From positions 275,698-339,697 of the forward strand of contig CAWBZP010000003.1 of assembly GCA_963793365.1 (NCBI GenBank): a DNA stretch of 64,000 nt. The letters are read 5' to 3'. Position numbers and translations under genes: made by a program. Under the pieces are notes generated by a model. It was not told the DNA's origin. It worked only from the letters and a program-made list of their open reading frames with translations, and did no database searches. Numbering within the stretch: the stretch's first letter is position 1; each line of letters begins with the position of its first letter. Shown piece after piece: positions 35,856 through 60,875 of the stretch. Origin of the DNA: an uncultured Flavobacteriaceae bacterium. GTDB lineage: Bacteria > Bacteroidota > Bacteroidia > Flavobacteriales > Flavobacteriaceae.

Positions 35856-36944
35856 TTATTTTTTTGTAAAACTTATTCCTCCATAATCACTGGTGAGGGT
35901 TACCATGTTACCGCTATCTTTTGATCCATAATAACCCTCATAGTGTTTATCGGATGATTTTTCTGTACGCACGTTTATGGTAAAGTCATCTTTGCCGCTT
36001 ACACCTGCATAACTTGTGGTAATGTCAAAATTAAAATGGTATTGTGCGTTATAGCCAATTTTGATGCCCGTGTAATCCGTTCGTATACTTACATTGCCGG
36101 CGTCCGCCGCCAATTCTTCAATCTTTACGGCTCCGTAATCTGCATTAATAGCAACATTGCCATGAACAGTGCCCATGGTAACCGTTATATAATCACCGTT
36201 ACCGTTGATATTGTTCACTTCTTTTATGTCCATATTCCCATAATCACTAGCGTAATCCAAATTTTCCATTTTTCCTATGTTCGCATTGGTGTAGTCCGCA
36301 TTGACTTTTAAGTTGCCCGCGGTATTAATGGTAAAGCCAGAATAATCTGCCCTTATTTCACCGCTATTAATATACCCAATGGTAGATTTAGAGGTATAAT
36401 CAAAATTTAACTGATTATTTCTACCGTGCAACTCACCAAGTTCTAACCTACCGTAGTCACAGCTTATTTTGGCATGACCATCAATTCTATCCAAGATAAT
36501 ACTACCGTAGTCATTGTTGAGGTCCACGTTGTTCTTGATCGGTACTTTTATGGTGTAGTTGATCTGCATGTTCACATTATTGTTATTGCCCCAGCTCCAG
36601 CCCCAGCCATTATTGTTTTTGTTGAAAATGGTCTTCGCCGATACCCTGTCGCTATTGGCTTCAAAATCTACAGAAATCTCATCCAATTTCTTTTGAACCT
36701 TTTCCTCATTATTACCATTCGTTTTTATATGTACTTCAATAACCACCCTGTTTTCTTTCCAAGAGGTAATGTTGAGGTTACCGTAAGAATTACGCACTTG
36801 CAATAAGGCATTGGGGTTAACGGTGAACTCTTTCTTAATTGTTTTCTCCTTGGTATGCTTTCCGCTAAGATCACGGTCATGGGCCGTTGAAACGGTAGTT
36901 ACTAGCAGTAGTAGTAATGTTGCCCTAAATAGTATAGTTCTCAT
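35856..36944 (-). CDS. DUF4097 family beta-strand repeat protein
   Basis: 362 aa with a signal peptide and repetitive beta-rich units with DYG/DYT motifs (NDYGSIILD, CDYGRLELG, ADYGAVKIE, SDYGGISF). Confidence 0.7.
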   Translation of the reverse strand: MRTILFRATLLLLLVTTVSTAHDRDLSGKHTKEKTIKKEFTVNPNALLQVRNSYGNLNITSWKENRVVIEVHIKTNGNNEEKVQKKLDEISVDFEANSDRVSAKTIFNKNNNGWGWSWGNNNNVNMQINYTIKVPIKNNVDLNNDYGSIILDRIDGHAKISCDYGRLELGELHGRNNQLNFDYTSKSTIGYINSGEIRADYSGFTINTAGNLKVNADYTNANIGKMENLDYASDYGNMDIKEVNNINGNGDYITVTMGTVHGNVAINADYGAVKIEELAADAGNVSIRTDYTGIKIGYNAQYHFNFDITTSYAGVSGKDDFTINVRTEKSSDKHYEGYYGSKDSGNMVTLTSDYGGISFTKK

Positions 36945-37491
36945 TATTTGTATTTTTTAAATTTTTAATCGTTTCTATTTGGATCATTACCTCATTGAGT
37001 AAATCGATCCGTGTTTGGAAATTCGTTATCATGGCGCTTAAAATAAGCTTGCTGTTGCCGCCGTTCACTAAATCCTGTTCCATTTTGGCATAGTTCAATT
37101 CCAGTTTTTTTAATTGGGCCATGGTATCGTTGATAATCTTTTCCGTTTCTGGAGTTGCCTCGGAATGTAGTTCTTTCACTTGCTCCTCTATGAGGCTGGC
37201 AAAATAAAATTCTGTCCTTGAAGCTTCCGGGGATATTTTCGCAACCTGCTCATCTACGGTATCGGGCGTGTTTAGTTGTAAGTAACCCACACTAAGCAGT
37301 AGTGCTACTACAGCTGCTACGGCACCATATTTTAGCCAGGTCTTATTTTTTCTTGGGGCCAGATTAACCACCCCTCTAGAGGCATTCAACTTGTCTAGAA
37401 AGCGCTGCTCATGGCCCTGTTCCGGCTCTTGGGTGTCAAATCCTCCCTGTAGTTGCTTAAATAGCTTTTCTATAGTATCTTCTTTCATCAA
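36925..37491 (-). CDS. Putative single-pass anti-sigma factor
   Basis: 188 aa with a central TM (YGAVAAVVALLLSVGYL). It overlaps the ECF sigma stop by 4 nt. The call rests on position and topology only. Confidence 0.5.
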   Translation of the reverse strand: MMKEDTIEKLFKQLQGGFDTQEPEQGHEQRFLDKLNASRGVVNLAPRKNKTWLKYGAVAAVVALLLSVGYLQLNTPDTVDEQVAKISPEASRTEFYFASLIEEQVKELHSEATPETEKIINDTMAQLKKLELNYAKMEQDLVNGGNSKLILSAMITNFQTRIDLLNEVMIQIETIKNLKNTNNENYTI

Positions 37492-38042
37492 TTTACATGT
37501 ATTAATTTTTGCCGTAGACTTTCTTTAGCCCTTGAAACGGTAGTTCTGCAGTTGGCATAACTAATATTCATAATCTCACTGATCTCGTCATAATCATAAC
37601 CTTCTATTAAATGTAAGGTCAAAGAAATTCTGTAATTGTCCTTTAATCCTTTCATGGTCTCCATCACTTTTTGAGCCTTTAGTTCTGTGAACACATGATC
37701 GGAGGCAATTCCATCATTATCTTCGACCTTGTATAGTACTTCATCCAATGCAACTTCATTTTTTTTACGTTGCTTTCTATAATGATAAATGCTGTTGTTG
37801 ATTACAATTCGTTTCAACCAGGATCCAAAGGTTACTTCACCCTTGAACGTATGCAATTTCGTGAAAGCGCTTAGAAACGATTCTTGCATAATGTCCTCCG
37901 CTAGTGCGGTATCCTTTACAATCCTGATTGCCGTATTGAACATGGCCCTGTAATACCTGTTGTACACTTCTAGCTGCGCACGTTGCTCACCGGCCATGCA
38001 TAACTGCAATAGCTCATCAATATGTTCTCTTTGTTGGCTCAA
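37488..38042 (-). CDS. RNA polymerase ECF-type sigma-70 factor
   Basis: 184 aa with region 2 (AEDIMQESFLSAFTKLHTF) and a region 4 HTH (YDEISEIMNISYANCRTTVSRAK). Confidence 0.88.
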   Translation of the reverse strand: MSQQREHIDELLQLCMAGEQRAQLEVYNRYYRAMFNTAIRIVKDTALAEDIMQESFLSAFTKLHTFKGEVTFGSWLKRIVINNSIYHYRKQRKKNEVALDEVLYKVEDNDGIASDHVFTELKAQKVMETMKGLKDNYRISLTLHLIEGYDYDEISEIMNISYANCRTTVSRAKESLRQKLIHVN

Positions 38043-44455: not shown

Positions 44456-45397
44456 CTAGCGATTAAAATAATGACTCGATTTAAGAAATAGCTCAGCATC
44501 CTCCATCTTTAAAATATCTATAAGGGCTGCGGTCTTGTTGGGCGCTTCTTCGTAATATTGCTTACAAATTTTATATCCGATTGCATAGCCCAAGAGTTTG
44601 GTGTATGTCTCGTGCTCCAGTGAGGGCCAAAACCAGAAATCCTTGTTTTGGGCCTTCGAGTCGTTCAAAAATTGTTTTTTTAATCGACTTTCATTCTTCT
44701 CTAGATATTCTAGGGCTCCAATTTGGGTAATGTTGCCCAGAACCTGTGCCGTAACAAATTCCGCTCCTCCTTCCCTAAGAGACATACCGAGCATATTATC
44801 GGGAGAAGCGTATAGCGCTGCATATTTCTGACCACCCATGGATATGGCCTGTTGGAAATGAGCTAGTTCATGAACCATCATTTTTTTCATTTTATCCATG
44901 TTGTCAACAATACGGGTTACCGTAATTAATTGTCCCACCATGGATGCTTGTCCGATACCACGGTTTGCGCCTACGATGAGGTAAGTGGGAGGATACATTG
45001 CGTTAGGAACAACTTTGTGGAAATCATCAAGTACAAAGGTATAGAGTTCTTGTACCTCCCCAATTTTAGTGACAAAATCGGGAAGAAGTGCATAACGCTC
45101 CGGATTTTCTCTTATTGCTTCCTTTAATCGTTCCGGGGTTAATTGATGGCGACGAACAAATTCCTTTAGACCATCTGATCCGCGTTCGAAATAGAACGTT
45201 TGTAGTACTCGTATGGTGTCGGTATTTTTAGAAAGTTCTTTATAAGCGTCCATAAAATGATTAAGATCACTGAAGATAATCTGAGCCTTTTTTGGATTTC
45301 GGGGATAAGCTGGTTGCGCATACGCTTGATTGAATAGCAATAAGTTTAAAACGCCTAGAATTATTAATACTTTTCTGAATGAAAATGATGCAGTCAT
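44456..45397 (-). CDS. Secreted putative zinc-dependent protease (DUF2268-like)
   Basis: 313 aa with a signal peptide and HExxH (MVHELAHFQQ). The family assignment is tentative. Confidence 0.55.
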   Translation of the reverse strand: MTASFSFRKVLIILGVLNLLLFNQAYAQPAYPRNPKKAQIIFSDLNHFMDAYKELSKNTDTIRVLQTFYFERGSDGLKEFVRRHQLTPERLKEAIRENPERYALLPDFVTKIGEVQELYTFVLDDFHKVVPNAMYPPTYLIVGANRGIGQASMVGQLITVTRIVDNMDKMKKMMVHELAHFQQAISMGGQKYAALYASPDNMLGMSLREGGAEFVTAQVLGNITQIGALEYLEKNESRLKKQFLNDSKAQNKDFWFWPSLEHETYTKLLGYAIGYKICKQYYEEAPNKTAALIDILKMEDAELFLKSSHYFNR

Positions 45398-53408: not shown

Positions 53409-53990
53409 TTAACCGTGAATGCTTTCTTTGGTACCTAGGTCTTTCATTATTTTGGCCTCGTAGGCCAATAAATCTTGCCATTTTTTATTGACTTCCTCCA
53501 CGTCCCCATATTTACGGGCAAATTTAAGGAACATGGTATAATGGCCTGCTTCACTTATCATGAGTTTATGGTAGAAATCTGCAAGTTTTTTGTCCTGCAA
53601 TTCCTCAGATAGAAGGCGAAAACGTTCACAGCTTCGCGCTTCTATTAATGCAGCATATAAAAGCCGATGTACCAGTTGGGTAGTACGGCTCCCTCCCTTG
53701 GGAAAGAATTTCAATAGTTCTATCACATAATCGTCCTTACGATCCCGCCCTAAGCTTTTACCACGTTCAAGGATAAGTTCGTGGACCATTTTAAAGTGCC
53801 CCATTTCCTCCCTCGAAAGCGCGATCATTTCATCTACAAGCGCAGTATATTCAGGAAAAGAAACGATTAGGGAAATTGCCGTACTGGCAGCCTTTTGCTC
53901 GCAGTAGGCATGGTCGGTCAATATTTCATCGATATTTTTTTCTACAATGTTCACCCACCTAGGATCGGTAGGTAATTTTAAGCCCAACAT
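53409..53990 (-). CDS. miaE: tRNA-(ms2io6A37)-hydroxylase MiaE
   Basis: 193 aa ferritin-like di-iron protein with TDHAYCEQKAAS, EEMGHF and SEAGHY helices. Confidence 0.8.
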   Translation of the reverse strand: MLGLKLPTDPRWVNIVEKNIDEILTDHAYCEQKAASTAISLIVSFPEYTALVDEMIALSREEMGHFKMVHELILERGKSLGRDRKDDYVIELLKFFPKGGSRTTQLVHRLLYAALIEARSCERFRLLSEELQDKKLADFYHKLMISEAGHYTMFLKFARKYGDVEEVNKKWQDLLAYEAKIMKDLGTKESIHG

Positions 53991-54081: not shown

Positions 54082-54089
54082 TATTTTTG
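54082..54089 (+). promoter_or_regulatory. Candidate -7 box (TATTTTTG) for the ebo operon
   Basis: Matches TAnnTTTG 28 nt upstream of the eboA ATG. No convincing -33 TTTG lies at canonical spacing. Confidence 0.3.
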
Positions 54090-54116: not shown

Positions 54117-54965
54117 ATGCAGGAAACTAGTGAGATTAAGGATATTTTAAAAGAATATGGTCAACCCGAGAGTTTGGTTTGGCTGAACGGAAAAATTGCA
54201 AAATTGGCAGAAAATAAATCGACTAAGGATTTATACATGACCTATAGTTTGTTGAGTGCCAAGTTTGATGGTTCCAAACCGGTTTCCTTTGGACAGGATG
54301 GGGGTAAAAAATCAATGTATTTTAAGCTGCATGATGCCAATTTACTTCAAATAGCACGCATTTATTTACTCTCGGAAGTATTGCGGCAAGATCAATCCTT
54401 CTACACTCCAAAAGTTGCCAATATTATTCAAGTTGCGGATACCGGCGAGTTGGAAACGTTTTTGAAATATTTAGTGCTGTTGCCCAATCCGGAGGCTTAC
54501 AAACAGACTGCGGTAGAAGCGCTGAGAACGAATATCGCTACGATTTTTGACGCCATAACCTTGAATAATCCGTACCCGGCAAAATACTTCAATGACCAAC
54601 AATGGAACCAGATGTACTTGAAAGCTGCTTTTATGGAGCGCGATTTATCGCAAATAGAATCTGTAGATGAACGTGCAAATGCCGATTTGACCCGTATTAT
54701 CTCTGATTATGCGCACGAACGCTGGGCGGCCTCAAGAAAAATAGATCCCTTGTTTTGGAGACCGGTTTCAAAATTTTTGAACGAAGTCCTATTGGCGGAT
54801 ATGAAAAGATTGTTAAACAGTGGGGATAAGTCAGAAAATTATGCGGGAGCACTCTGCTGTTTTCATTCAAAAAACGATACAGCAAAGCAGCTATTGAATA
54901 ACTATCCAGATTTAAAGGAAAAAGTTGCCTCAAAAGAAATACGTTGGAAGACGCTTAAACAATAA
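54117..54965 (+). CDS. eboA: EboA-like protein
   Basis: 282 aa helical protein with no enzymatic motif. It is assigned by its position as the first gene of an eboB-F-type cluster. Confidence 0.7.
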   Translation: MQETSEIKDILKEYGQPESLVWLNGKIAKLAENKSTKDLYMTYSLLSAKFDGSKPVSFGQDGGKKSMYFKLHDANLLQIARIYLLSEVLRQDQSFYTPKVANIIQVADTGELETFLKYLVLLPNPEAYKQTAVEALRTNIATIFDAITLNNPYPAKYFNDQQWNQMYLKAAFMERDLSQIESVDERANADLTRIISDYAHERWAASRKIDPLFWRPVSKFLNEVLLADMKRLLNSGDKSENYAGALCCFHSKNDTAKQLLNNYPDLKEKVASKEIRWKTLKQ

Positions 54966-54970
54966 AAAGA

Positions 54971-55879
54971 ATGGATGAAACAATGATGATTATAGACCCA
55001 CACGTTCATATGACCTCTAGGACGACGGATGATTACGAGGCCATGGCCGCGGCTGGGGTAGTTGCAATTATAGAACCTTCCTTTTGGTTGGGACAGCCAA
55101 GGACACAAGTAGGTTCCTTTCAAGATTATTTTAGCAGTCTCGTCGGCTGGGAACCGTTTAGGGCCAGCCAATTTGGGATTAAACATTATTGTACGATTGG
55201 CCTTAATTCAAAGGAAGCCAATAATGAGGCATTGGCGGAACAGGTAATTGAGCTATTGCCACTTTATTTACATAAAGAAAATGTGGTAGCCATAGGTGAA
55301 ATAGGATATGATGACCAGACTCCGGCAGAGGATAAGTATTTTAGAATGCAGTTGGAGATGGCCAAGGAGTTGGGCATGACCGTGCAGGTGCACACGCCTC
55401 ATCGCGATAAAAAGGCAGGTACCATTAAAAGTATGGAAGTTTGTATGGAGCATGGTCTAGATCCGGGGAACGTAATCATAGATCATAATAATGAAGAGAC
55501 CGTTAAGGAGGTTTTAGACCGCGGATTTATTGCGGCCTTTACGATTTACCCAAAAACGAAAATGGGTAATGAGCGAATGGTGGAGGTAGTCAAGAAATTT
55601 GGGAGCACCAATATTATCGTTGATAGTTCTGCGGATTGGGGAGTTAGTGATCCTTTGGCGGTCCCTAAGACTGCGGCCCTAATGTTAAAGCGGGGAATCG
55701 ATAGGGAGGATGTTAGGAAAACCTGTTACCAGAATGCATTGGACGCTTTTGGTAAAAACGGAAAAATGAAGGAGTCCCATTGGTTAAAGCCCACGGGCAT
55801 CAATCAATCCAAGCTCTATAACGAGAACAGTGTCTTAAGAGGGCAGGCGCCAAGAATTGACGAAGATCAAATCACCTAG
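54971..55879 (+). CDS. eboB: TatD-family metal-dependent hydrolase (EboB)
   Basis: 302 aa amidohydrolase-fold with signatures DPHVHM, GEIGYD and QVHTPH. Confidence 0.85.
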   Translation: MDETMMIIDPHVHMTSRTTDDYEAMAAAGVVAIIEPSFWLGQPRTQVGSFQDYFSSLVGWEPFRASQFGIKHYCTIGLNSKEANNEALAEQVIELLPLYLHKENVVAIGEIGYDDQTPAEDKYFRMQLEMAKELGMTVQVHTPHRDKKAGTIKSMEVCMEHGLDPGNVIIDHNNEETVKEVLDRGFIAAFTIYPKTKMGNERMVEVVKKFGSTNIIVDSSADWGVSDPLAVPKTAALMLKRGIDREDVRKTCYQNALDAFGKNGKMKESHWLKPTGINQSKLYNENSVLRGQAPRIDEDQIT

Positions 55880-55880
55880 A

Positions 55881-56780
55881 ATGAAGGAGAAGCTGATGGG
55901 TTTTGCAAGATTGGCAAGACCCGCCAATTTACCTACGGCCGCCGCGGATATATGTGCAGGTATAGCCATTGGGCTCTACGTGCAATCCATTGATGCGGAT
56001 TTATTTCTACCGCAGCATATAGGAATGGTCTTATCGTTGGTATGCGCATCCATCTTTCTATATGCAGGTGGTGTGGTCTTTAATGATGTATTTGATGCAG
56101 AGCTGGATGCTGTTGAGCGTCCCGAACGCGCTATTCCCAGTGGAATTGTAACAAAAGGCGAGGCTAAAATTTGGGGTGCTTTATTACTCGTATCCGGAGT
56201 TTTACTGGCTTTTACTTGTACGATTTTGTCCGGTGTAATCTCGGTACTATTGGCAATGGCTATCCTAATCTACGATGCTTACAGTAAACATCATGCATTT
56301 TTTGGCCCCTTGAACATGGGAGTTTGTAGGGGATTGAACCTACTCCTAGGCGTATCTATCTTGGGGTCTGTGGTACCGTGGTGGATTTCTATCGTACCCA
56401 TAGTCTACATTTTTGCAATTACTATGATCAGTAGGGGTGAAGTACATGGCAACAATAAGAATCATATCCTTTTGGCAGGTATTCTGTATGCAATAGTTGT
56501 AGTGGCAATTGCGTTAGTAATAGGATTAAAGACCAATGCTTTATTGATTGTGCTGCCTTTTTTGATGTTGTTCGCTGTTTTGATCTTTGTACCCTTGTCC
56601 AAGGCCTACCAAGAAAATTCGCCTAAGAATATCAAAAAAGCCGTAATTTCAGGAGTATTGTCGCTAATTGTAATGAACGCTTGCTGGGTGGCCGGTTTTT
56701 CAAGTTGGTATCTGGCGCTAGGGGTACTATTGTTATTCCCCTTATCCATAGTTTTGTCTAAATTATTTGCTGTAACCTAA
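55881..56780 (+). CDS. eboC: UbiA-family membrane prenyltransferase (EboC)
   Basis: The ATG lies 1 nt after the eboB stop; the track ORF starts at an upstream TTG. The first Asp-rich motif is NDVFDAELDAVERPERAIPSG, with ~8-9 TM helices. Confidence 0.88.
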   Translation: MKEKLMGFARLARPANLPTAAADICAGIAIGLYVQSIDADLFLPQHIGMVLSLVCASIFLYAGGVVFNDVFDAELDAVERPERAIPSGIVTKGEAKIWGALLLVSGVLLAFTCTILSGVISVLLAMAILIYDAYSKHHAFFGPLNMGVCRGLNLLLGVSILGSVVPWWISIVPIVYIFAITMISRGEVHGNNKNHILLAGILYAIVVVAIALVIGLKTNALLIVLPFLMLFAVLIFVPLSKAYQENSPKNIKKAVISGVLSLIVMNACWVAGFSSWYLALGVLLLFPLSIVLSKLFAVT

Positions 56781-56787
56781 GAATTTT

Positions 56788-57948
56788 ATGCAATTACAAT
56801 CTATAAAACAGTCTTTTAAAGTACACTATGAGTATCAATTGTATTTTACAAACGGGCTATTTACTCTTGACAATCCCTTATTTTCGAATTTAATAGCTGA
56901 GTATCAGGGACTGGAACCAGTGAAATTATTTTTCGTAGTTGATGACGGGGTACAAAAACACCATCCTGATCTATGTTCCCAAATTGAGACCTACTGCAAG
57001 CATTTTAAGGACATAGTAAGGCACACGGCAACCCTTGTTGTTCCTGGCGGGGAACAATCGAAAAATAGCGAGGCCGCTGTTGAAGCAGTACTGAAAGGTG
57101 TGAATGATCATAAAATTTGTCGTCACTCATTCGTAATTGTAGTTGGTGGGGGCGCTGTTATAGATATGGTGGGCTACGCTGCGGCCATAGCACATAGGGG
57201 CGTAAAATTAATCCGTATACCAACAACCGTGCTTTCGCAGAATGATTCTGCTGTGGGCGTTAAGAACAGTATAAACGCATTTCAAAAAAAGAATTTTTTA
57301 GGAACATTTGCGCCACCTTACGCTATAATCAACGATAGCGATTTTCTACGAACTTTAGAACAACGTGATTGGATTTCTGGAATTGCGGAGGCTATAAAAG
57401 TAGCGTTAATCAAGGACAATGACTTTTTTCAATATATCGCTCAAAATGCAGAAGCCTTGAAAAATAGGGAAATGGAACCAATGCACGATGTTATTTATAA
57501 ATGCGCGGAAATGCATATGGAGCATATTGCCCAAGGTGGGGACCCGTTTGAATCTGGTTCCTCCAGACCCTTGGATTTTGGCCATTGGGCCGCCCACAAA
57601 ATGGAATTTATGTCCAATTACCAAATGCGCCATGGGGAAGCGGTGGCCAAGGGTATCGCATTGGATGTTACTTATGCCCAACTCTGTGGACTGATTACGG
57701 AGACCGAATTACATCAAATTTTGGATGTCATGAAAAAGATTGGCTTTGACTTGGCGATACCCATGAATACTCCAGAGGAAATTGATATTTTACTTAAAGG
57801 GATAGAGGAGTTTAGGGAGCATCTTGGTGGCCAGCTTACCATAACCTTACTATCTGGATTAGGCATAAAGCATGATGTACATACCATTGATATGAAACGC
57901 ATGAAAGATGCGGTAATGAAGTTGAACCATCAAATGGCCTTAAATTAA
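56788..57948 (+). CDS. eboD: 3-dehydroquinate synthase superfamily sugar-phosphate cyclase (EboD)
   Basis: 386 aa with motifs PGGEQSKN, VVGGGAVIDMVGYAAA and RIPTTVLSQNDSAVGVKN. Confidence 0.85.
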   Translation: MQLQSIKQSFKVHYEYQLYFTNGLFTLDNPLFSNLIAEYQGLEPVKLFFVVDDGVQKHHPDLCSQIETYCKHFKDIVRHTATLVVPGGEQSKNSEAAVEAVLKGVNDHKICRHSFVIVVGGGAVIDMVGYAAAIAHRGVKLIRIPTTVLSQNDSAVGVKNSINAFQKKNFLGTFAPPYAIINDSDFLRTLEQRDWISGIAEAIKVALIKDNDFFQYIAQNAEALKNREMEPMHDVIYKCAEMHMEHIAQGGDPFESGSSRPLDFGHWAAHKMEFMSNYQMRHGEAVAKGIALDVTYAQLCGLITETELHQILDVMKKIGFDLAIPMNTPEEIDILLKGIEEFREHLGGQLTITLLSGLGIKHDVHTIDMKRMKDAVMKLNHQMALN

Positions 57949-57952
57949 AAGT

Positions 57953-59146
57953 ATGCAGGTAAAACAGGACCTTCATTTAACCTATTGCACCAACATTCAC
58001 CCAGGGCAGGACTGGAAAAGTACGTTCGATAGTATAAAAGCGAATGTACCTGTTATCAAGAAATCTACCTGTGGGGAAGAAAACTTTGGTTTGGGTCTTC
58101 GCTTGTCCAATAAGGCCAGTGAGGAATTAGATCATGGAAATAATTTTTCCGAGTTCCAAAAATGGCTAAAGGACAACGCTGTTTATGTCTTTACCATGAA
58201 CGGCTTTCCATATGGTAATTTTCATGATGAACGGGTAAAGGATTTGGTCCATGCCCCAGATTGGACCACCCCAGAACGGCTAGGCTACTCAAAAAGGCTG
58301 TTTCGTCAGCTTTCAGAATTATTGCCAGAGGGAATGGCCGGTGGCATATCAACTTCACCTATTTCTTATAAGTATTGGCATAAAAGTAAAGAAGATGCCA
58401 AAAGAGCCTTTGAAACCGGGGCGCGGCAACTCGTACAATTGGTCAATTATTTGGTGTACTTGGAGGAAACTACAGGGAAATACATGCATCTGGATATAGA
58501 GCCTGAACCCGACGGCCTTTTGGAGAACAGTGATGAGGTCTTGTCTTTTTTCTCGGATTATCTGCTGCCGATCGGCATTCCGTTTCTTGAGAAACAGTTA
58601 GGTTCTACCAGTTTAGAGGCAGAAGCCTTACTTAAAAAATACATAACGGTTTGTTATGACATCTGTCATTTTTCCCTTGCCTATGAAGAGCCCAGGGATA
58701 CCTTTTTAAAGTTTAAAGCCAAAGACATCCTCATTGGTAAAATTCAAGTAAGTGCCGCGTTGAAAATAATATTTAATGGCGCTAATGATGAAGTTGTTTG
58801 GGAGGAACTTTCAAAATTCAATGAGCCTACCTATCTGCACCAGGTAACAGAAGAAATAGGCGGTTCCGTCAAGACCTATAGCGATTTGCCCGAAGTCCTA
58901 AACAATAGGGGTACCCATAGGGAGTTAAGGGCGCATTACCATGTGCCCATTTTTTTGGAAAAGTATGGTTCATTATTTTCCACACAGGATCATATTCTAA
59001 AAACCATAAATTACATTCAAGAACATCCTGTTTGCGAGCATTTGGAAATTGAAACGTATACTTGGGATGTGCTGCCTTCCGATTTGAAACAGGATTTGTC
59101 AGAATCCATCGTTCGGGAAATTGAATGGTTGAAAATACGCTTATAG
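57953..59146 (+). CDS. eboE: Xylose-isomerase-like TIM-barrel protein (EboE)
   Basis: 397 aa alpha/beta-barrel-type sequence (HLDIEPEPDG...). Position and size match EboE. Confidence 0.75.
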   Translation: MQVKQDLHLTYCTNIHPGQDWKSTFDSIKANVPVIKKSTCGEENFGLGLRLSNKASEELDHGNNFSEFQKWLKDNAVYVFTMNGFPYGNFHDERVKDLVHAPDWTTPERLGYSKRLFRQLSELLPEGMAGGISTSPISYKYWHKSKEDAKRAFETGARQLVQLVNYLVYLEETTGKYMHLDIEPEPDGLLENSDEVLSFFSDYLLPIGIPFLEKQLGSTSLEAEALLKKYITVCYDICHFSLAYEEPRDTFLKFKAKDILIGKIQVSAALKIIFNGANDEVVWEELSKFNEPTYLHQVTEEIGGSVKTYSDLPEVLNNRGTHRELRAHYHVPIFLEKYGSLFSTQDHILKTINYIQEHPVCEHLEIETYTWDVLPSDLKQDLSESIVREIEWLKIRL

Positions 59147-59147
59147 C

Positions 59148-60521
59148 ATGAAGAAGACGGTTGTAATCAATGTAGTGGGGCTTACGAAACGATTGATAGG
59201 TGAACACACACCCTTCATTTCATCATTTTTGGAAAGGGGAAAGGCAACCTACATTAAGCCTATGTTACCTGCGGTTACCTGTGCGGTTCAATCAACTTAC
59301 GTTACGGGAAAGTGGCCTTCAGGACACGGTATCGTTGGCAATGGCTGGTATTTTAAGGAGGAGTGTGAGGTGAAATTTTGGAGGCAATCCAATAAGTTGG
59401 TACAGCAACCAAAAATTTGGGATGATTTAAAGGAACAGTATCCAGATTTTACCTGTGCCAATCATTTTTGGTGGTATAATATGTACTCCAATGTGGATTA
59501 TAGTATGACCCCGCGCCCCAATTATTTGGCAGATGGAAGAAAAATTCCGGATATCTATTCCCATCCCGCCGCGTTGCGCGATCAGATGCAGAAAGAGCTG
59601 GGCACTTTCCCGCTTTTTGAGTTCTGGGGGCCTAAAACGACCATAAATTCATCGAATTGGATCGCCAATGCCGCATTATTGACAGATAAAGAACACAATC
59701 CTGATCTTACGCTAATTTATCTGCCGCATTTAGATTATAATCTGCAACGCTATGGAATCGATTTTAATATCATTTCAAAGGATTTATCTGAAATAGATGC
59801 GGTAGTAAGGAAACTGGTAGCGCATTACGAACAAAAGGATACCCGGGTAATTTTACTTTCGGAATATGGAATTACAAATGTAAACAGACCTGTACATCTT
59901 AATCGATTATTGCGAAAGAACGGATTTATAAGTATTCGTGAAGAACGTGGATTGGAATTATTGGATGCGGGAGCGAGCGCTGCCTTTGCCGTTGCGGATC
60001 ATCAAGTGGCCCATGTTTATTGTAAGGATAAGACTAAAATAGAAGCTGTTGCAAGCCTTATCAAAAAAGAAAAGGGTGTGGAAAAAGTAGTGTACGGGGA
60101 AGATTTGAAGGCGGCTCATTTACAACACGAACGTTGTGGAGATATTGTCGTGGTTGCGGACAAGGATTCTTGGTTTACCTATTATTTTTGGTTGGATGAT
60201 TCCAAAGCACCGGATTACGCTAGGATGGTGGATATTCACAAGAAGCCCGGTTACGATCCCGTAGAAATGATGACAGATCCCAAAGACAAACTGGTAATGG
60301 CAAAAGTTGTTGGAAAATTATTGAAAAAGAAAGTAGGTTTTAGGACCGTTATGGATATTATTCCGCTGGATGCAAACTTAATAAAAGGTTCCCATGGCCG
60401 GTTGACAGAAGATCAAGATGACCATCCTATCCTTATAAGTAATTTTGGAGAGGGCATCAATAGCCCATCAATCGAAGCTACCGATGTGCGGGCTATTATA
60501 GAAAATCATCTGGTAAACTAA
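59148..60521 (+). CDS. eboF: Alkaline phosphatase / nucleotide pyrophosphatase superfamily protein (EboF)
   Basis: 457 aa; N-terminal VVINVVGLT...PAVTCAVQSTYVTG (nucleophile Thr region) and later HLDY and SHG metal-site-like motifs. Confidence 0.8.
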   Translation: MKKTVVINVVGLTKRLIGEHTPFISSFLERGKATYIKPMLPAVTCAVQSTYVTGKWPSGHGIVGNGWYFKEECEVKFWRQSNKLVQQPKIWDDLKEQYPDFTCANHFWWYNMYSNVDYSMTPRPNYLADGRKIPDIYSHPAALRDQMQKELGTFPLFEFWGPKTTINSSNWIANAALLTDKEHNPDLTLIYLPHLDYNLQRYGIDFNIISKDLSEIDAVVRKLVAHYEQKDTRVILLSEYGITNVNRPVHLNRLLRKNGFISIREERGLELLDAGASAAFAVADHQVAHVYCKDKTKIEAVASLIKKEKGVEKVVYGEDLKAAHLQHERCGDIVVVADKDSWFTYYFWLDDSKAPDYARMVDIHKKPGYDPVEMMTDPKDKLVMAKVVGKLLKKKVGFRTVMDIIPLDANLIKGSHGRLTEDQDDHPILISNFGEGINSPSIEATDVRAIIENHLVN

Positions 60522-60527
60522 GGCCTA

Positions 60528-60875
60528 ATGAATCAATTCTTTAAAGTTATAGGTTACGTGTTCGCCCTTTTGTTTGCAGTGGGCGCTGCGGTACAGTATA
60601 ATGATCCAGATTCCATGCTATGGATACTGATTTATTTGCTTGCAGCCCTAATCTCGCTAGTATTCGCCTTGGGTAGGCTAAAAGCTGCAATTCCGCTCAT
60701 TTTTGGGGTTTTGGCTTTGGTTGGTTTTTTGTTTCTCTACCCGACCGATTTTCAGGGTTTCGATTTAAATGATGGTGACATTGAAACGGTAGAGTTGGGA
60801 AGGGAAGCCTTTGGGCTTTTAATTATCGGTTTGGTCCTGTTGATTTTCGGTTTACGGTTAAAGCGAAAATCATAG
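60528..60875 (+). CDS. Small 4-TM membrane protein (TMEM220-like)
   Basis: 115 aa with four hydrophobic helices. It starts 6 nt after the eboF stop on the same strand. Confidence 0.6.
   Translation: MNQFFKVIGYVFALLFAVGAAVQYNDPDSMLWILIYLLAALISLVFALGRLKAAIPLIFGVLALVGFLFLYPTDFQGFDLNDGDIETVELGREAFGLLIIGLVLLIFGLRLKRKS

Follow-up and report, generated by a model that had tools for sequence, protein, structure and literature searches.

A complete eboABCDEF operon in a Maribacter-like flavobacterium and its most likely link to drimane-quinoline biosynthesis

The ebo operon was defined by Yurchenko et al. (2016) as six clustered and co-directional genes, which follow the order ABCDEF in the Bacteroidota/cyanobacterial type. 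It has carried this name since 2016; biochemistry is now available for two of its enzymes, and the genus that the present organism resembles is also the one in which a product has been proposed. The copy described here occupies positions 54117-60521 of the window, meaning the whole analysed stretch of 64,000 nucleotides from contig CAWBZP010000003.1 (assembly GCA_963793365.1) of an uncultured Flavobacteriaceae bacterium. The preprint 10.64898/2026.05.21.724671 (Kallscheuer et al., May 2026; hereafter Kallscheuer et al. 2026) tied the ebo genes to thallusin, a morphogen of Ulva, in part by comparative genomics in which Maribacter served as model. The operon was carried by 27 of 27 thallusin producers and by none of eight non-producers, and a Maribacter pangenome of eight producing strains against a single non-producer singled out eboC within eboABCDEF. 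In the same work, 15N,13C4-aspartate labelled the quinoline core in Maribacter sp. MS6, EboC enzymes of three phyla farnesylated a 6,7,8-trihydroxyquinaldate ester, and single deletions of eboB, eboC, eboE or eboF in Stieleria maiorica abolished both thallusin and the Ulva phenotype. Picomolar thallusin is enough to act on Ulva, and the compound binds Fe(III) in stable complexes.

At the level of single enzymes, UbiA-297 proteins, homologues of EboC, were expressed from Maribacter sp. MS6, Zobellia uliginosa and Algoriphagus machipongonensis and shown to farnesylate hydroxyquinoline-2-carboxylates (Amiri Moghaddam et al. 2022, PMC9235831), and cyclitol formation by EboD homologues is credited to Tanoeyadi et al. 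2024 by two citing papers, PMC12904256 and Kallscheuer et al. 2026. The initial annotation of the window had presented the operon as a cryptic pathway with no known product, no enzyme-level biochemistry and no phenotype in flavobacteria. The first statement is out of date in view of the thallusin proposal, though two peer-reviewed papers discussed below differ, and the second is overtaken by the EboC assays and the cited EboD activity. The third is likewise overtaken, by a correlation (eight Maribacter producers with ebo, one non-producer without); no producer-side phenotype has been reported in flavobacteria. The operon is an orthologue of one already investigated in Maribacter, and most of the mystery ascribed to it has been resolved.

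A complete and conserved ebo operon

Six intact open reading frames (ORFs) follow one another on the forward strand of the window, with intergenic gaps of 5, 1, 7, 4 and 1 nt from eboA to eboF. They comprise eboA (54117..54965, 282 aa), eboB (54971..55879, 302 aa), eboC (55881..56780, 299 aa counted from the ATG, with a TTG at 55857 as the alternative start), eboD (56788..57948, 386 aa), eboE (57953..59146, 397 aa) and eboF (59148..60521, 457 aa). Their clustering, common direction and ABCDEF order agree with the definition of Yurchenko et al. 2016, and the locus is a complete eboABCDEF operon in canonical Bacteroidota order. All six ORF lengths match those of orthologues, indicating that the reading frames are free of frameshifts. 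The motifs DPHVHM, NDVFDAELDAVERPERAIPSG, GGGAVIDMVGYAAA and RIPTTVLSQNDSAVGVKN were all found in the translations, and the earlier description of six co-directional genes 1-7 nt apart proved exact in its coordinates, spacing and quoted motifs. EboC is the sole membrane-embedded Ebo protein, with multiple transmembrane segments, and a signal peptide was predicted in none of the six. Operon GC content and GC content at third codon positions (GC3) are the same as in the adjacent housekeeping genes, so that no signal of horizontal transfer was detected by these two measures.

To compare the arrangement, the window proteins were searched by tblastn in 80 related loci of Flavobacteriaceae. The genes lay in the order A-B-C-D-E-F on one strand in 80 of 80 loci, and the few missing genes all fell at contig ends. 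Such an arrangement is far beyond chance. The content and order proposed in the initial annotation are those of the ebo cluster, by curated profiles as well as by this synteny, and the expected conservation of the six genes in Flavobacteriaceae was seen wherever the contig was long enough. When all ORFs of 12 loci with different flanks were clustered, only the six ebo genes were held in common, and no other gene travelling with ebo was shared by at least four of these 12. The module can therefore be delimited to the six genes, excluding the TMEM220-like and MiaE-like neighbours described below.

The nearest genome is an uncultured Flavobacteriaceae metagenome-assembled genome (MAG), whose Ebo proteins are 94-99% identical to those of the window and whose flanking ppk1 and miaE products are 99% identical, while the nearest named relatives of EboD belong to Maribacter (77-80% identity). 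Against M. stanieri DSM 19891, M. ulvicola DSM 15366, M. sedimenticola DSM 19840 and M. chungangensis, the window proteins are 62-93% identical (EboA 62-75%, EboB 85-93%, EboC 62-71%, EboD 72-78%, EboE 66-73% and EboF 76-82%). All four strains, which are among the loci compared here, appear in the tested-strain table of Kallscheuer et al. 2026. The same source states that non-producers are devoid of ebo, the one in Maribacter being M. aestuarii, and from this we infer that the four strains are producers. The gene set linked to thallusin by Kallscheuer et al. 2026 is present in the window, and by this orthology its organism is a probable producer of thallusin. Taken together, we hold with good though incomplete confidence that this is a functional and chromosomally native operon of a Maribacter-like flavobacterium, and that it most likely specifies the conserved biosynthesis of two drimane-quinoline meroterpenoids, saccharoquinoline and thallusin.

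Enzymes encoded by the operon

EboC is predicted to be an integral-membrane, UbiA-like aromatic farnesyltransferase. It scored 368 bits against the equivalog NF035940 (cut-off 250), the next-best model, that of the SCO3242 family, reached 135 against 260, and every other match was also under its cut-off. Among its 12 NCBIfam matches at E <= 0.001, no MenA or 4-hydroxybenzoate (UbiA) quinone model was found, in keeping with the earlier expectation that the gene is not a quinone prenyltransferase. UbiA-297 enzymes are characterised by a first Asp-rich motif of the DxxDxxxD type, a Tyr (Y56) that replaces the pocket Arg of UbiA/COQ2, and R145 on a neighbouring helix (PMC9235831). The pocket of the window enzyme was compared by way of the UbiA-297 residue numbering given in that paper. 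EboC carries a DxxDxxxD-type motif and not the MenA-type DxxDxxxxxD, with N68-D76 reading NDVFDAELD (NDxxDxxxD), Y61 lying seven residues ahead of N68, and R150 within CRGLNLL. Y61 and R150 thus correspond to Y56 and R145 at a constant offset of +5, so that the Asp-rich motif, Tyr and Arg of UbiA-297 are all present, and the three features are invariant in 10 orthologues.

The nearest solved relative of EboC is the archaeal lipid synthase DGGGPS (6m31). In the alignment of the two, the acidic stretch KDFEDMEGD of 6m31 pairs with ISRGEVHGNNK in EboC (residues about 176-195; positions 56400-56470), where the acidic residues are absent, and the motif SRGEVHG.NK.H is invariant across the aligned orthologues. 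In UbiA-type enzymes this stretch corresponds to the second Asp-rich motif. Its non-acidic character in EboC may bear on the idea, raised in the preprint, that the enzyme also cyclises the farnesyl chain.

EboD, a dehydroquinate synthase (DHQS)-like sugar-phosphate cyclase, scored 558 bits against the DHQS-like model NF004852 (cut-off 333) and 234.7 against the aroB model TIGR01357, below the cut-off of 305. For comparison, a fragment of Vibrio cholerae AroB taken from the PDB 3okf alignment was scanned beside the equivalent fragment of EboD. The genuine AroB fragment passed TIGR01357 (376) and failed NF004852 (213 against 333), whereas the EboD fragment gave the reverse pattern, with 470 for NF004852 and 226 for TIGR01357. 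This reciprocal control indicates that NF004852 is an EboD-type family under a legacy name. Relative to 3okf, the core of EboD is kept, but a Lys is changed to His (IKAEVV in AroB, MHMEHI in EboD) and an Asn to Asp (LLNLGH and PLDFGH, respectively), and both changes are invariant in the aligned orthologues. We take the two sites to be substrate-pocket positions in DHQS. EboD, encoded within an ebo operon and falling short of the AroB equivalog model, is a sugar-phosphate cyclase whose lineage is separate from that of AroB, as the profile check set beforehand by the initial annotation had anticipated. What it shares with AroB is the fold of sugar-phosphate cyclases, a GGG motif for NAD binding and conserved aligned residues; the differences lie in the score below the aroB cut-off, the two pocket substitutions and another substrate, the last as cited in PMC12904256. 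The ebo-operon setting and the pocket substitutions make the window sequence consistent with the EboD activity reported by the citing papers. NF004852 (PRK06203) is still named '3-dehydroquinate synthase', and the ebo-linked EboD proteins of public Maribacter genomes are annotated as AroB, a naming that appears to be a systematic misannotation.

EboE scored 476 bits against the equivalog NF035939 (cut-off 250) and had no sequence match in Pfam or the PDB. Its AlphaFold (AF2) model, with a mean predicted local distance difference test (pLDDT) of 86.7 and a predicted template-modelling score (pTM) of 0.89, returned 106 PDB matches at E <= 0.001 in Foldseek, of which the top 50 were all xylose-isomerase-like barrels. 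Profile and model agree with the TIM barrel of the earlier assignment and place EboE in the isomerase/epimerase/dehydratase class. The best structural matches were Art22, UlaE and SCO6571, followed by the 3-dehydroshikimate dehydratase AsbF, IolI and IolE, and xylose isomerases were also among them. Considering that AsbF, IolI and IolE act on carbocyclic ketones, EboE could plausibly be the dehydratase or isomerase by which the inosose ring is processed or aromatised.

EboB, a TatD-type metal-dependent hydrolase of the amidohydrolase superfamily, matched TatD_DNase (PF01026) at 1.7e-18, with the uncharacterised AF_1765 (3guw) as the nearest solved structure (8.9e-19) and an intact HxH metal motif (DPHVHM). 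It is the most conserved Ebo protein, with 77-99% identity over the 80 loci against 51-95% for EboA and EboC, a level equal to that of the housekeeping flanks ppk1, miaE and dnaX. This suggests an unusually strong constraint on the hydrolase, and the conservation together with the intact HxH motif would fit a chemically demanding central step. EboF matched Phosphodiest (PF01663) at 1.4e-66 over residues 4-370, with a weak PDB match to ENPP7 over about residues 21-77, and neither a signal peptide nor a transmembrane segment was predicted in it, consistent with a cytoplasmic phosphohydrolase of the NPP/alkaline-phosphatase superfamily.

EboA reached 153 bits against the EboA domain model NF035938 (cut-off 50) and had no Pfam-A match in the local Pfam copy, while its homologues are named 'EboA domain-containing protein' and carry precomputed PF28008 matches. 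The full-length subfamily model NF035937 gave 169.8 bits, under its cut-off of 320; the flavobacterial 282-aa protein extends C-terminally past this 219-position model, and the narrower model is not what defines the ebo operon. The AF2 model (pLDDT 79.8) contains 17 helices, and Foldseek returned no significant fold match for it, only weak ARM/HEAT-repeat matches (E >= 0.016, TM-score <= 0.36). Neither a transmembrane segment nor a signal peptide was predicted, and EboA is probably a soluble, all-alpha helical-repeat protein without catalytic function. It is missing in most planctomycete thallusin producers (Kallscheuer et al. 2026) and is fused to a xylose-isomerase-like domain in actinobacteria (Yurchenko 2016). 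EboA would accordingly be a non-catalytic partner, possibly of EboE. With these results, the TatD, UbiA-type, DHQS-superfamily, NPP and EboA assignments of the initial annotation were recovered by their respective profiles.

A proposed route to thallusin and its alternatives

Based on these assignments, a four-step pathway can be proposed. EboD would make a cyclitol, an activity ascribed by the citing papers to homologues elsewhere. The cyclitol carbocycle would then be fused with the nitrogen and all four carbons of L-aspartate and aromatised to a polyhydroxy-quinoline-2-carboxylate. In this second step, EboE may work on the inosose ring in the manner of AsbF or IolE, as a dehydratase or isomerase, and EboB may be a ring-closing or hydrolytic enzyme of the amidohydrolase type, while EboF would take off a phosphate ester and EboA would serve as a non-catalytic helical scaffold. 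Subsequently, membrane-bound EboC would move the farnesyl group from farnesyl pyrophosphate (FPP) onto the hydroxyquinaldate, as its homologues do in vitro, and might also cyclise the chain to the drimane skeleton, an idea of Kallscheuer et al. 2026. An oxidative ring cleavage, possibly non-enzymatic and iron-assisted, would finally lead to secreted thallusin.

Several points weigh against this pathway assignment. Thallusin is linked to ebo by a single preprint that has not passed peer review, and peer-reviewed papers of February (PMC12904256) and July 2026 still call the final product of ebo unknown. The deletions were made in a planctomycete, and the Maribacter evidence consists of correlation, isotope labelling and in-vitro EboC assays. 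For the window, thallusin production is predicted by orthology to the tested strains and expression of the operon is a prediction; the steps given to EboA, EboB, EboE and EboF derive from folds, and the EboD activity is taken from citing papers. No enzyme is known for the assembly of the quinoline ring or for its oxidative opening. Moreover, scytonemin-monomer export in Nostoc and the indole-dependent nematode repellence of P. fluorescens are not obviously explained by thallusin.

An older proposal is that ebo builds a membrane-anchored polyprenyl-cyclitol(-phosphate), which moves metabolites across the cytoplasmic membrane (Yurchenko 2016, Klicki 2018), a carrier lipid also suggested by the initial annotation. 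The Nostoc export phenotype remains one observation in its support, EboC is indeed an integral membrane prenyltransferase with the lipid synthase DGGGPS as nearest solved relative, and NCBI names EboA and EboE 'metabolite traffic' proteins. Nevertheless, EboC homologues use the C15 donor FPP and an aromatic hydroxyquinaldate acceptor rather than a cyclitol (PMC9235831), aspartate is incorporated into the head group (Kallscheuer et al. 2026), and thallusin was detected in spent medium and culture supernatants. Klicki et al. 2018 found no lipid-conjugated intermediate, and N. punctiforme itself makes thallusin, the scytonemin effect being treated as possibly indirect (Kallscheuer et al. 2026). 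A carrier lipid is quite improbable in this light. Even less credit, indeed hardly any, is due to the reading in which 56788-57948 is shikimate AroB and 55881-56780 a MenA/UbiA quinone prenyltransferase, adjacent by chance. The name '3-dehydroquinate synthase' of the best EboD model and of public orthologues speaks for it, yet the TIGR01357 score and the reciprocal control point the opposite way, EboD departs from AroB at the two pocket positions, no quinone model was among the EboC matches at E <= 0.001, and eboD is locked in the six-gene unit at every one of the 80 loci.

The chemistry may also be as proposed above while its purpose differs, so that the prenylated polyhydroxyquinaldate or thallusin is an iron-binding or redox metabolite for the producer and the effect on Ulva is secondary. 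The stable Fe(III) complexes of thallusin accord with such a role, as do the search for a conserved ring-cleavage enzyme, which found none and led to the suggestion of iron-assisted chemistry (Kallscheuer et al. 2026), the presence of ebo core genes where there is no Ulva link, in soil and freshwater organisms and in the plastids of eustigmatophytes, the pleiotropic ebo phenotypes elsewhere, and the native composition and housekeeping surroundings of the present operon. On the other hand, no producer-side phenotype is on record for flavobacteria, activity on Ulva at picomolar levels speaks for a dedicated signal, and nothing in the window, such as a TonB receptor or an iron regulator adjoining the operon, points to iron uptake; a primarily producer-side role is considered unlikely here. 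An intact operon that is silent or non-productive in this organism has a very small chance of being correct. Terminator-like sites were not enriched and promoter-like sites showed a marginal excess, in a scan that does not cover Bacteroidetes promoters. Against silence stand six full-length ORFs matching their orthologues, intact catalytic motifs, the conservation of EboB over the 80 loci, which indicates purifying selection, a -7-like box kept upstream of eboA, and the account of Kallscheuer et al. 2026 that every ebo-carrying strain tested made thallusin.

Beyond the preferred pathway to saccharoquinoline and thallusin, a broader speculation may be entertained, although it seems doubtful at present. 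The ancestral job of the module might be to provide a farnesylated polyhydroxyquinaldate, iron-binding or redox-active, for the producer itself, with EboE as the aromatising dehydratase and EboB as the enzyme that closes the ring between aspartate and cyclitol; thallusin would arise by non-enzymatic, iron-assisted opening, and the effect on Ulva would be a later co-option. If true, one chemistry might connect phenotypes that otherwise seem unrelated, the scytonemin export of Nostoc and the indole catabolism and nematode repellence of Pseudomonas, and also the retention of ebo in eustigmatophyte plastids.

With this operon, an uncultured lineage close to Maribacter can be flagged as probably producing thallusin, the bacterial signal that seaweeds like Ulva need, at picomolar levels, for normal development. 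It supports the calling of thallusin producers from genomes and metagenomes, with modest practical value, and gives no special handle on the enzymes of aspartate-cyclitol fusion, the role of EboA or the ring opening.

Transcription, genomic surroundings and known ebo systems

The 1-7 nt gaps make a single transcript the natural reading, and a single promoter, upstream of eboA, probably serves all six genes. Among 12 Maribacter-type loci, strong conservation in the spacer between miaE and eboA was confined to one block, TAATAAT.TTA.TTTTG, which ends 28 nt before the eboA ATG. The Bacteroidetes -7 consensus is TAnnTTTG. The block contains a candidate -7 box that fits it, TATTTTTG (54082..54089, forward strand), located 28 nt upstream of the eboA ATG, for which a promoter function is predicted. 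A sigma-70 scan gave 33 promoter-like sites against 23.9 +/- 4.4 in shuffles, a marginal excess from a tool that does not cover Bacteroidetes promoters, and terminator-like sites were at background level in the scan.

Upstream of the operon lie rpsA, pyrR, pyrB, RNase Z, pdxH, ppk1 and a divergent miaE, and downstream a convergent dnaX; no pathway-related gene was found within about 25 kb upstream, which holds just housekeeping and carbohydrate genes. The ORF at 60528-60875 (forward strand, 115 aa) has three transmembrane segments and matches TMEM220 (PF15071, 4.7e-20); it begins 6 nt after eboF and overlaps the end of the convergent dnaX by 6 nt. A role as seventh gene of the operon, or as its exporter, was rejected, for the ORF was found only in loci with the dnaX flank and was absent from full-length alternative-context loci, and in locus L072 it stood beside dnaX, about 3 kb from eboF. 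By these comparisons the TMEM220-like ORF travels with dnaX, not with ebo; the expression construct 54117..60875 suggested by the initial annotation includes it. The reverse-strand gene at 53409-53990 encodes a MiaE-like di-iron tRNA hydroxylase (PF06175, 1.5e-41), a 193-aa short form that is divergent from eboA at a distance of 126 bp, falls under the NCBIfam equivalog cut-off (96.9 against 320) and stands beside ebo only in the Maribacter-type context. The MiaE-like hydroxylase was considered as the missing oxidative enzyme and discarded, being a local housekeeping flank absent from the alternative-context loci.

Three of the 80 loci, with Maribacter-like ebo genes and EboD proteins 68-80% identical to that of the window, came from bins labelled as Gemmatimonadales (L024), Saprospiraceae (L047) and Chitinophagaceae (L071) MAGs, and L024 and L071 also have Maribacter-type flanking genes. 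All three are probably mis-binned flavobacterial contigs. Farther from the operon, the reverse-strand region 35856-38042 encodes an ECF-type sigma factor (Sigma70_r2/r4_2) and, after it, two ORFs of 188 aa and 362 aa without a Pfam match and a DUF2807 adhesin-head-like protein, possibly a sigma/anti-sigma module. Between rpsA and a PAS sensor histidine kinase, a reverse-strand ORF of 313 aa (44456-45397) had no NCBIfam match at E <= 1e-5.

Among the known ebo systems, the eboABCDEF operons of Maribacter (MS6 and the type strains) are the closest; gene content, gene order and the use of a single strand all agree, and the genes are tightly packed. The likeness extends to EboC pocket residues identical to those of the window and, in the closest loci, to the flanks, with ppk1 and miaE upstream and the TMEM220-like ORF and dnaX downstream. 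No structural or architectural difference was found between the Maribacter operon and that of the window; the difference is one of lineage, the window coming from another species-level lineage, with named Maribacter at about 78% for EboD. The cluster of Nostoc punctiforme (Klicki et al. 2018) likewise has homologous eboA-C and eboE-F together with eboD, all needed for one phenotype, but its genes are linked to the locus for scytonemin, and its eboD stands apart or is duplicated, whereas the window contains no scy genes; the phenotype recorded there is a failed export of the scytonemin monomer. In Pseudomonas fluorescens NZI7, the EDB cluster (Burlinson 2013; Zhou 2022) comprises six ebo homologues; the phenotype, which requires its genes of the eboC and eboD type, differs in being an indole-dependent nematode repellence, and no product had been assigned in that system by February 2026. 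Saccharomonospora sp. CNQ-490, of the Actinomycetota type, which makes both saccharoquinoline and thallusin, shares the core eboB, eboC, eboE and eboF with the window, and its EboC homologue farnesylates hydroxyquinaldates (Kallscheuer et al. 2026). Its locus is devoid of eboD and follows another gene order, and the flanking inositol genes ino1-3 were proposed as another cyclitol route, in contrast to the window, which possesses eboD and no ino genes.

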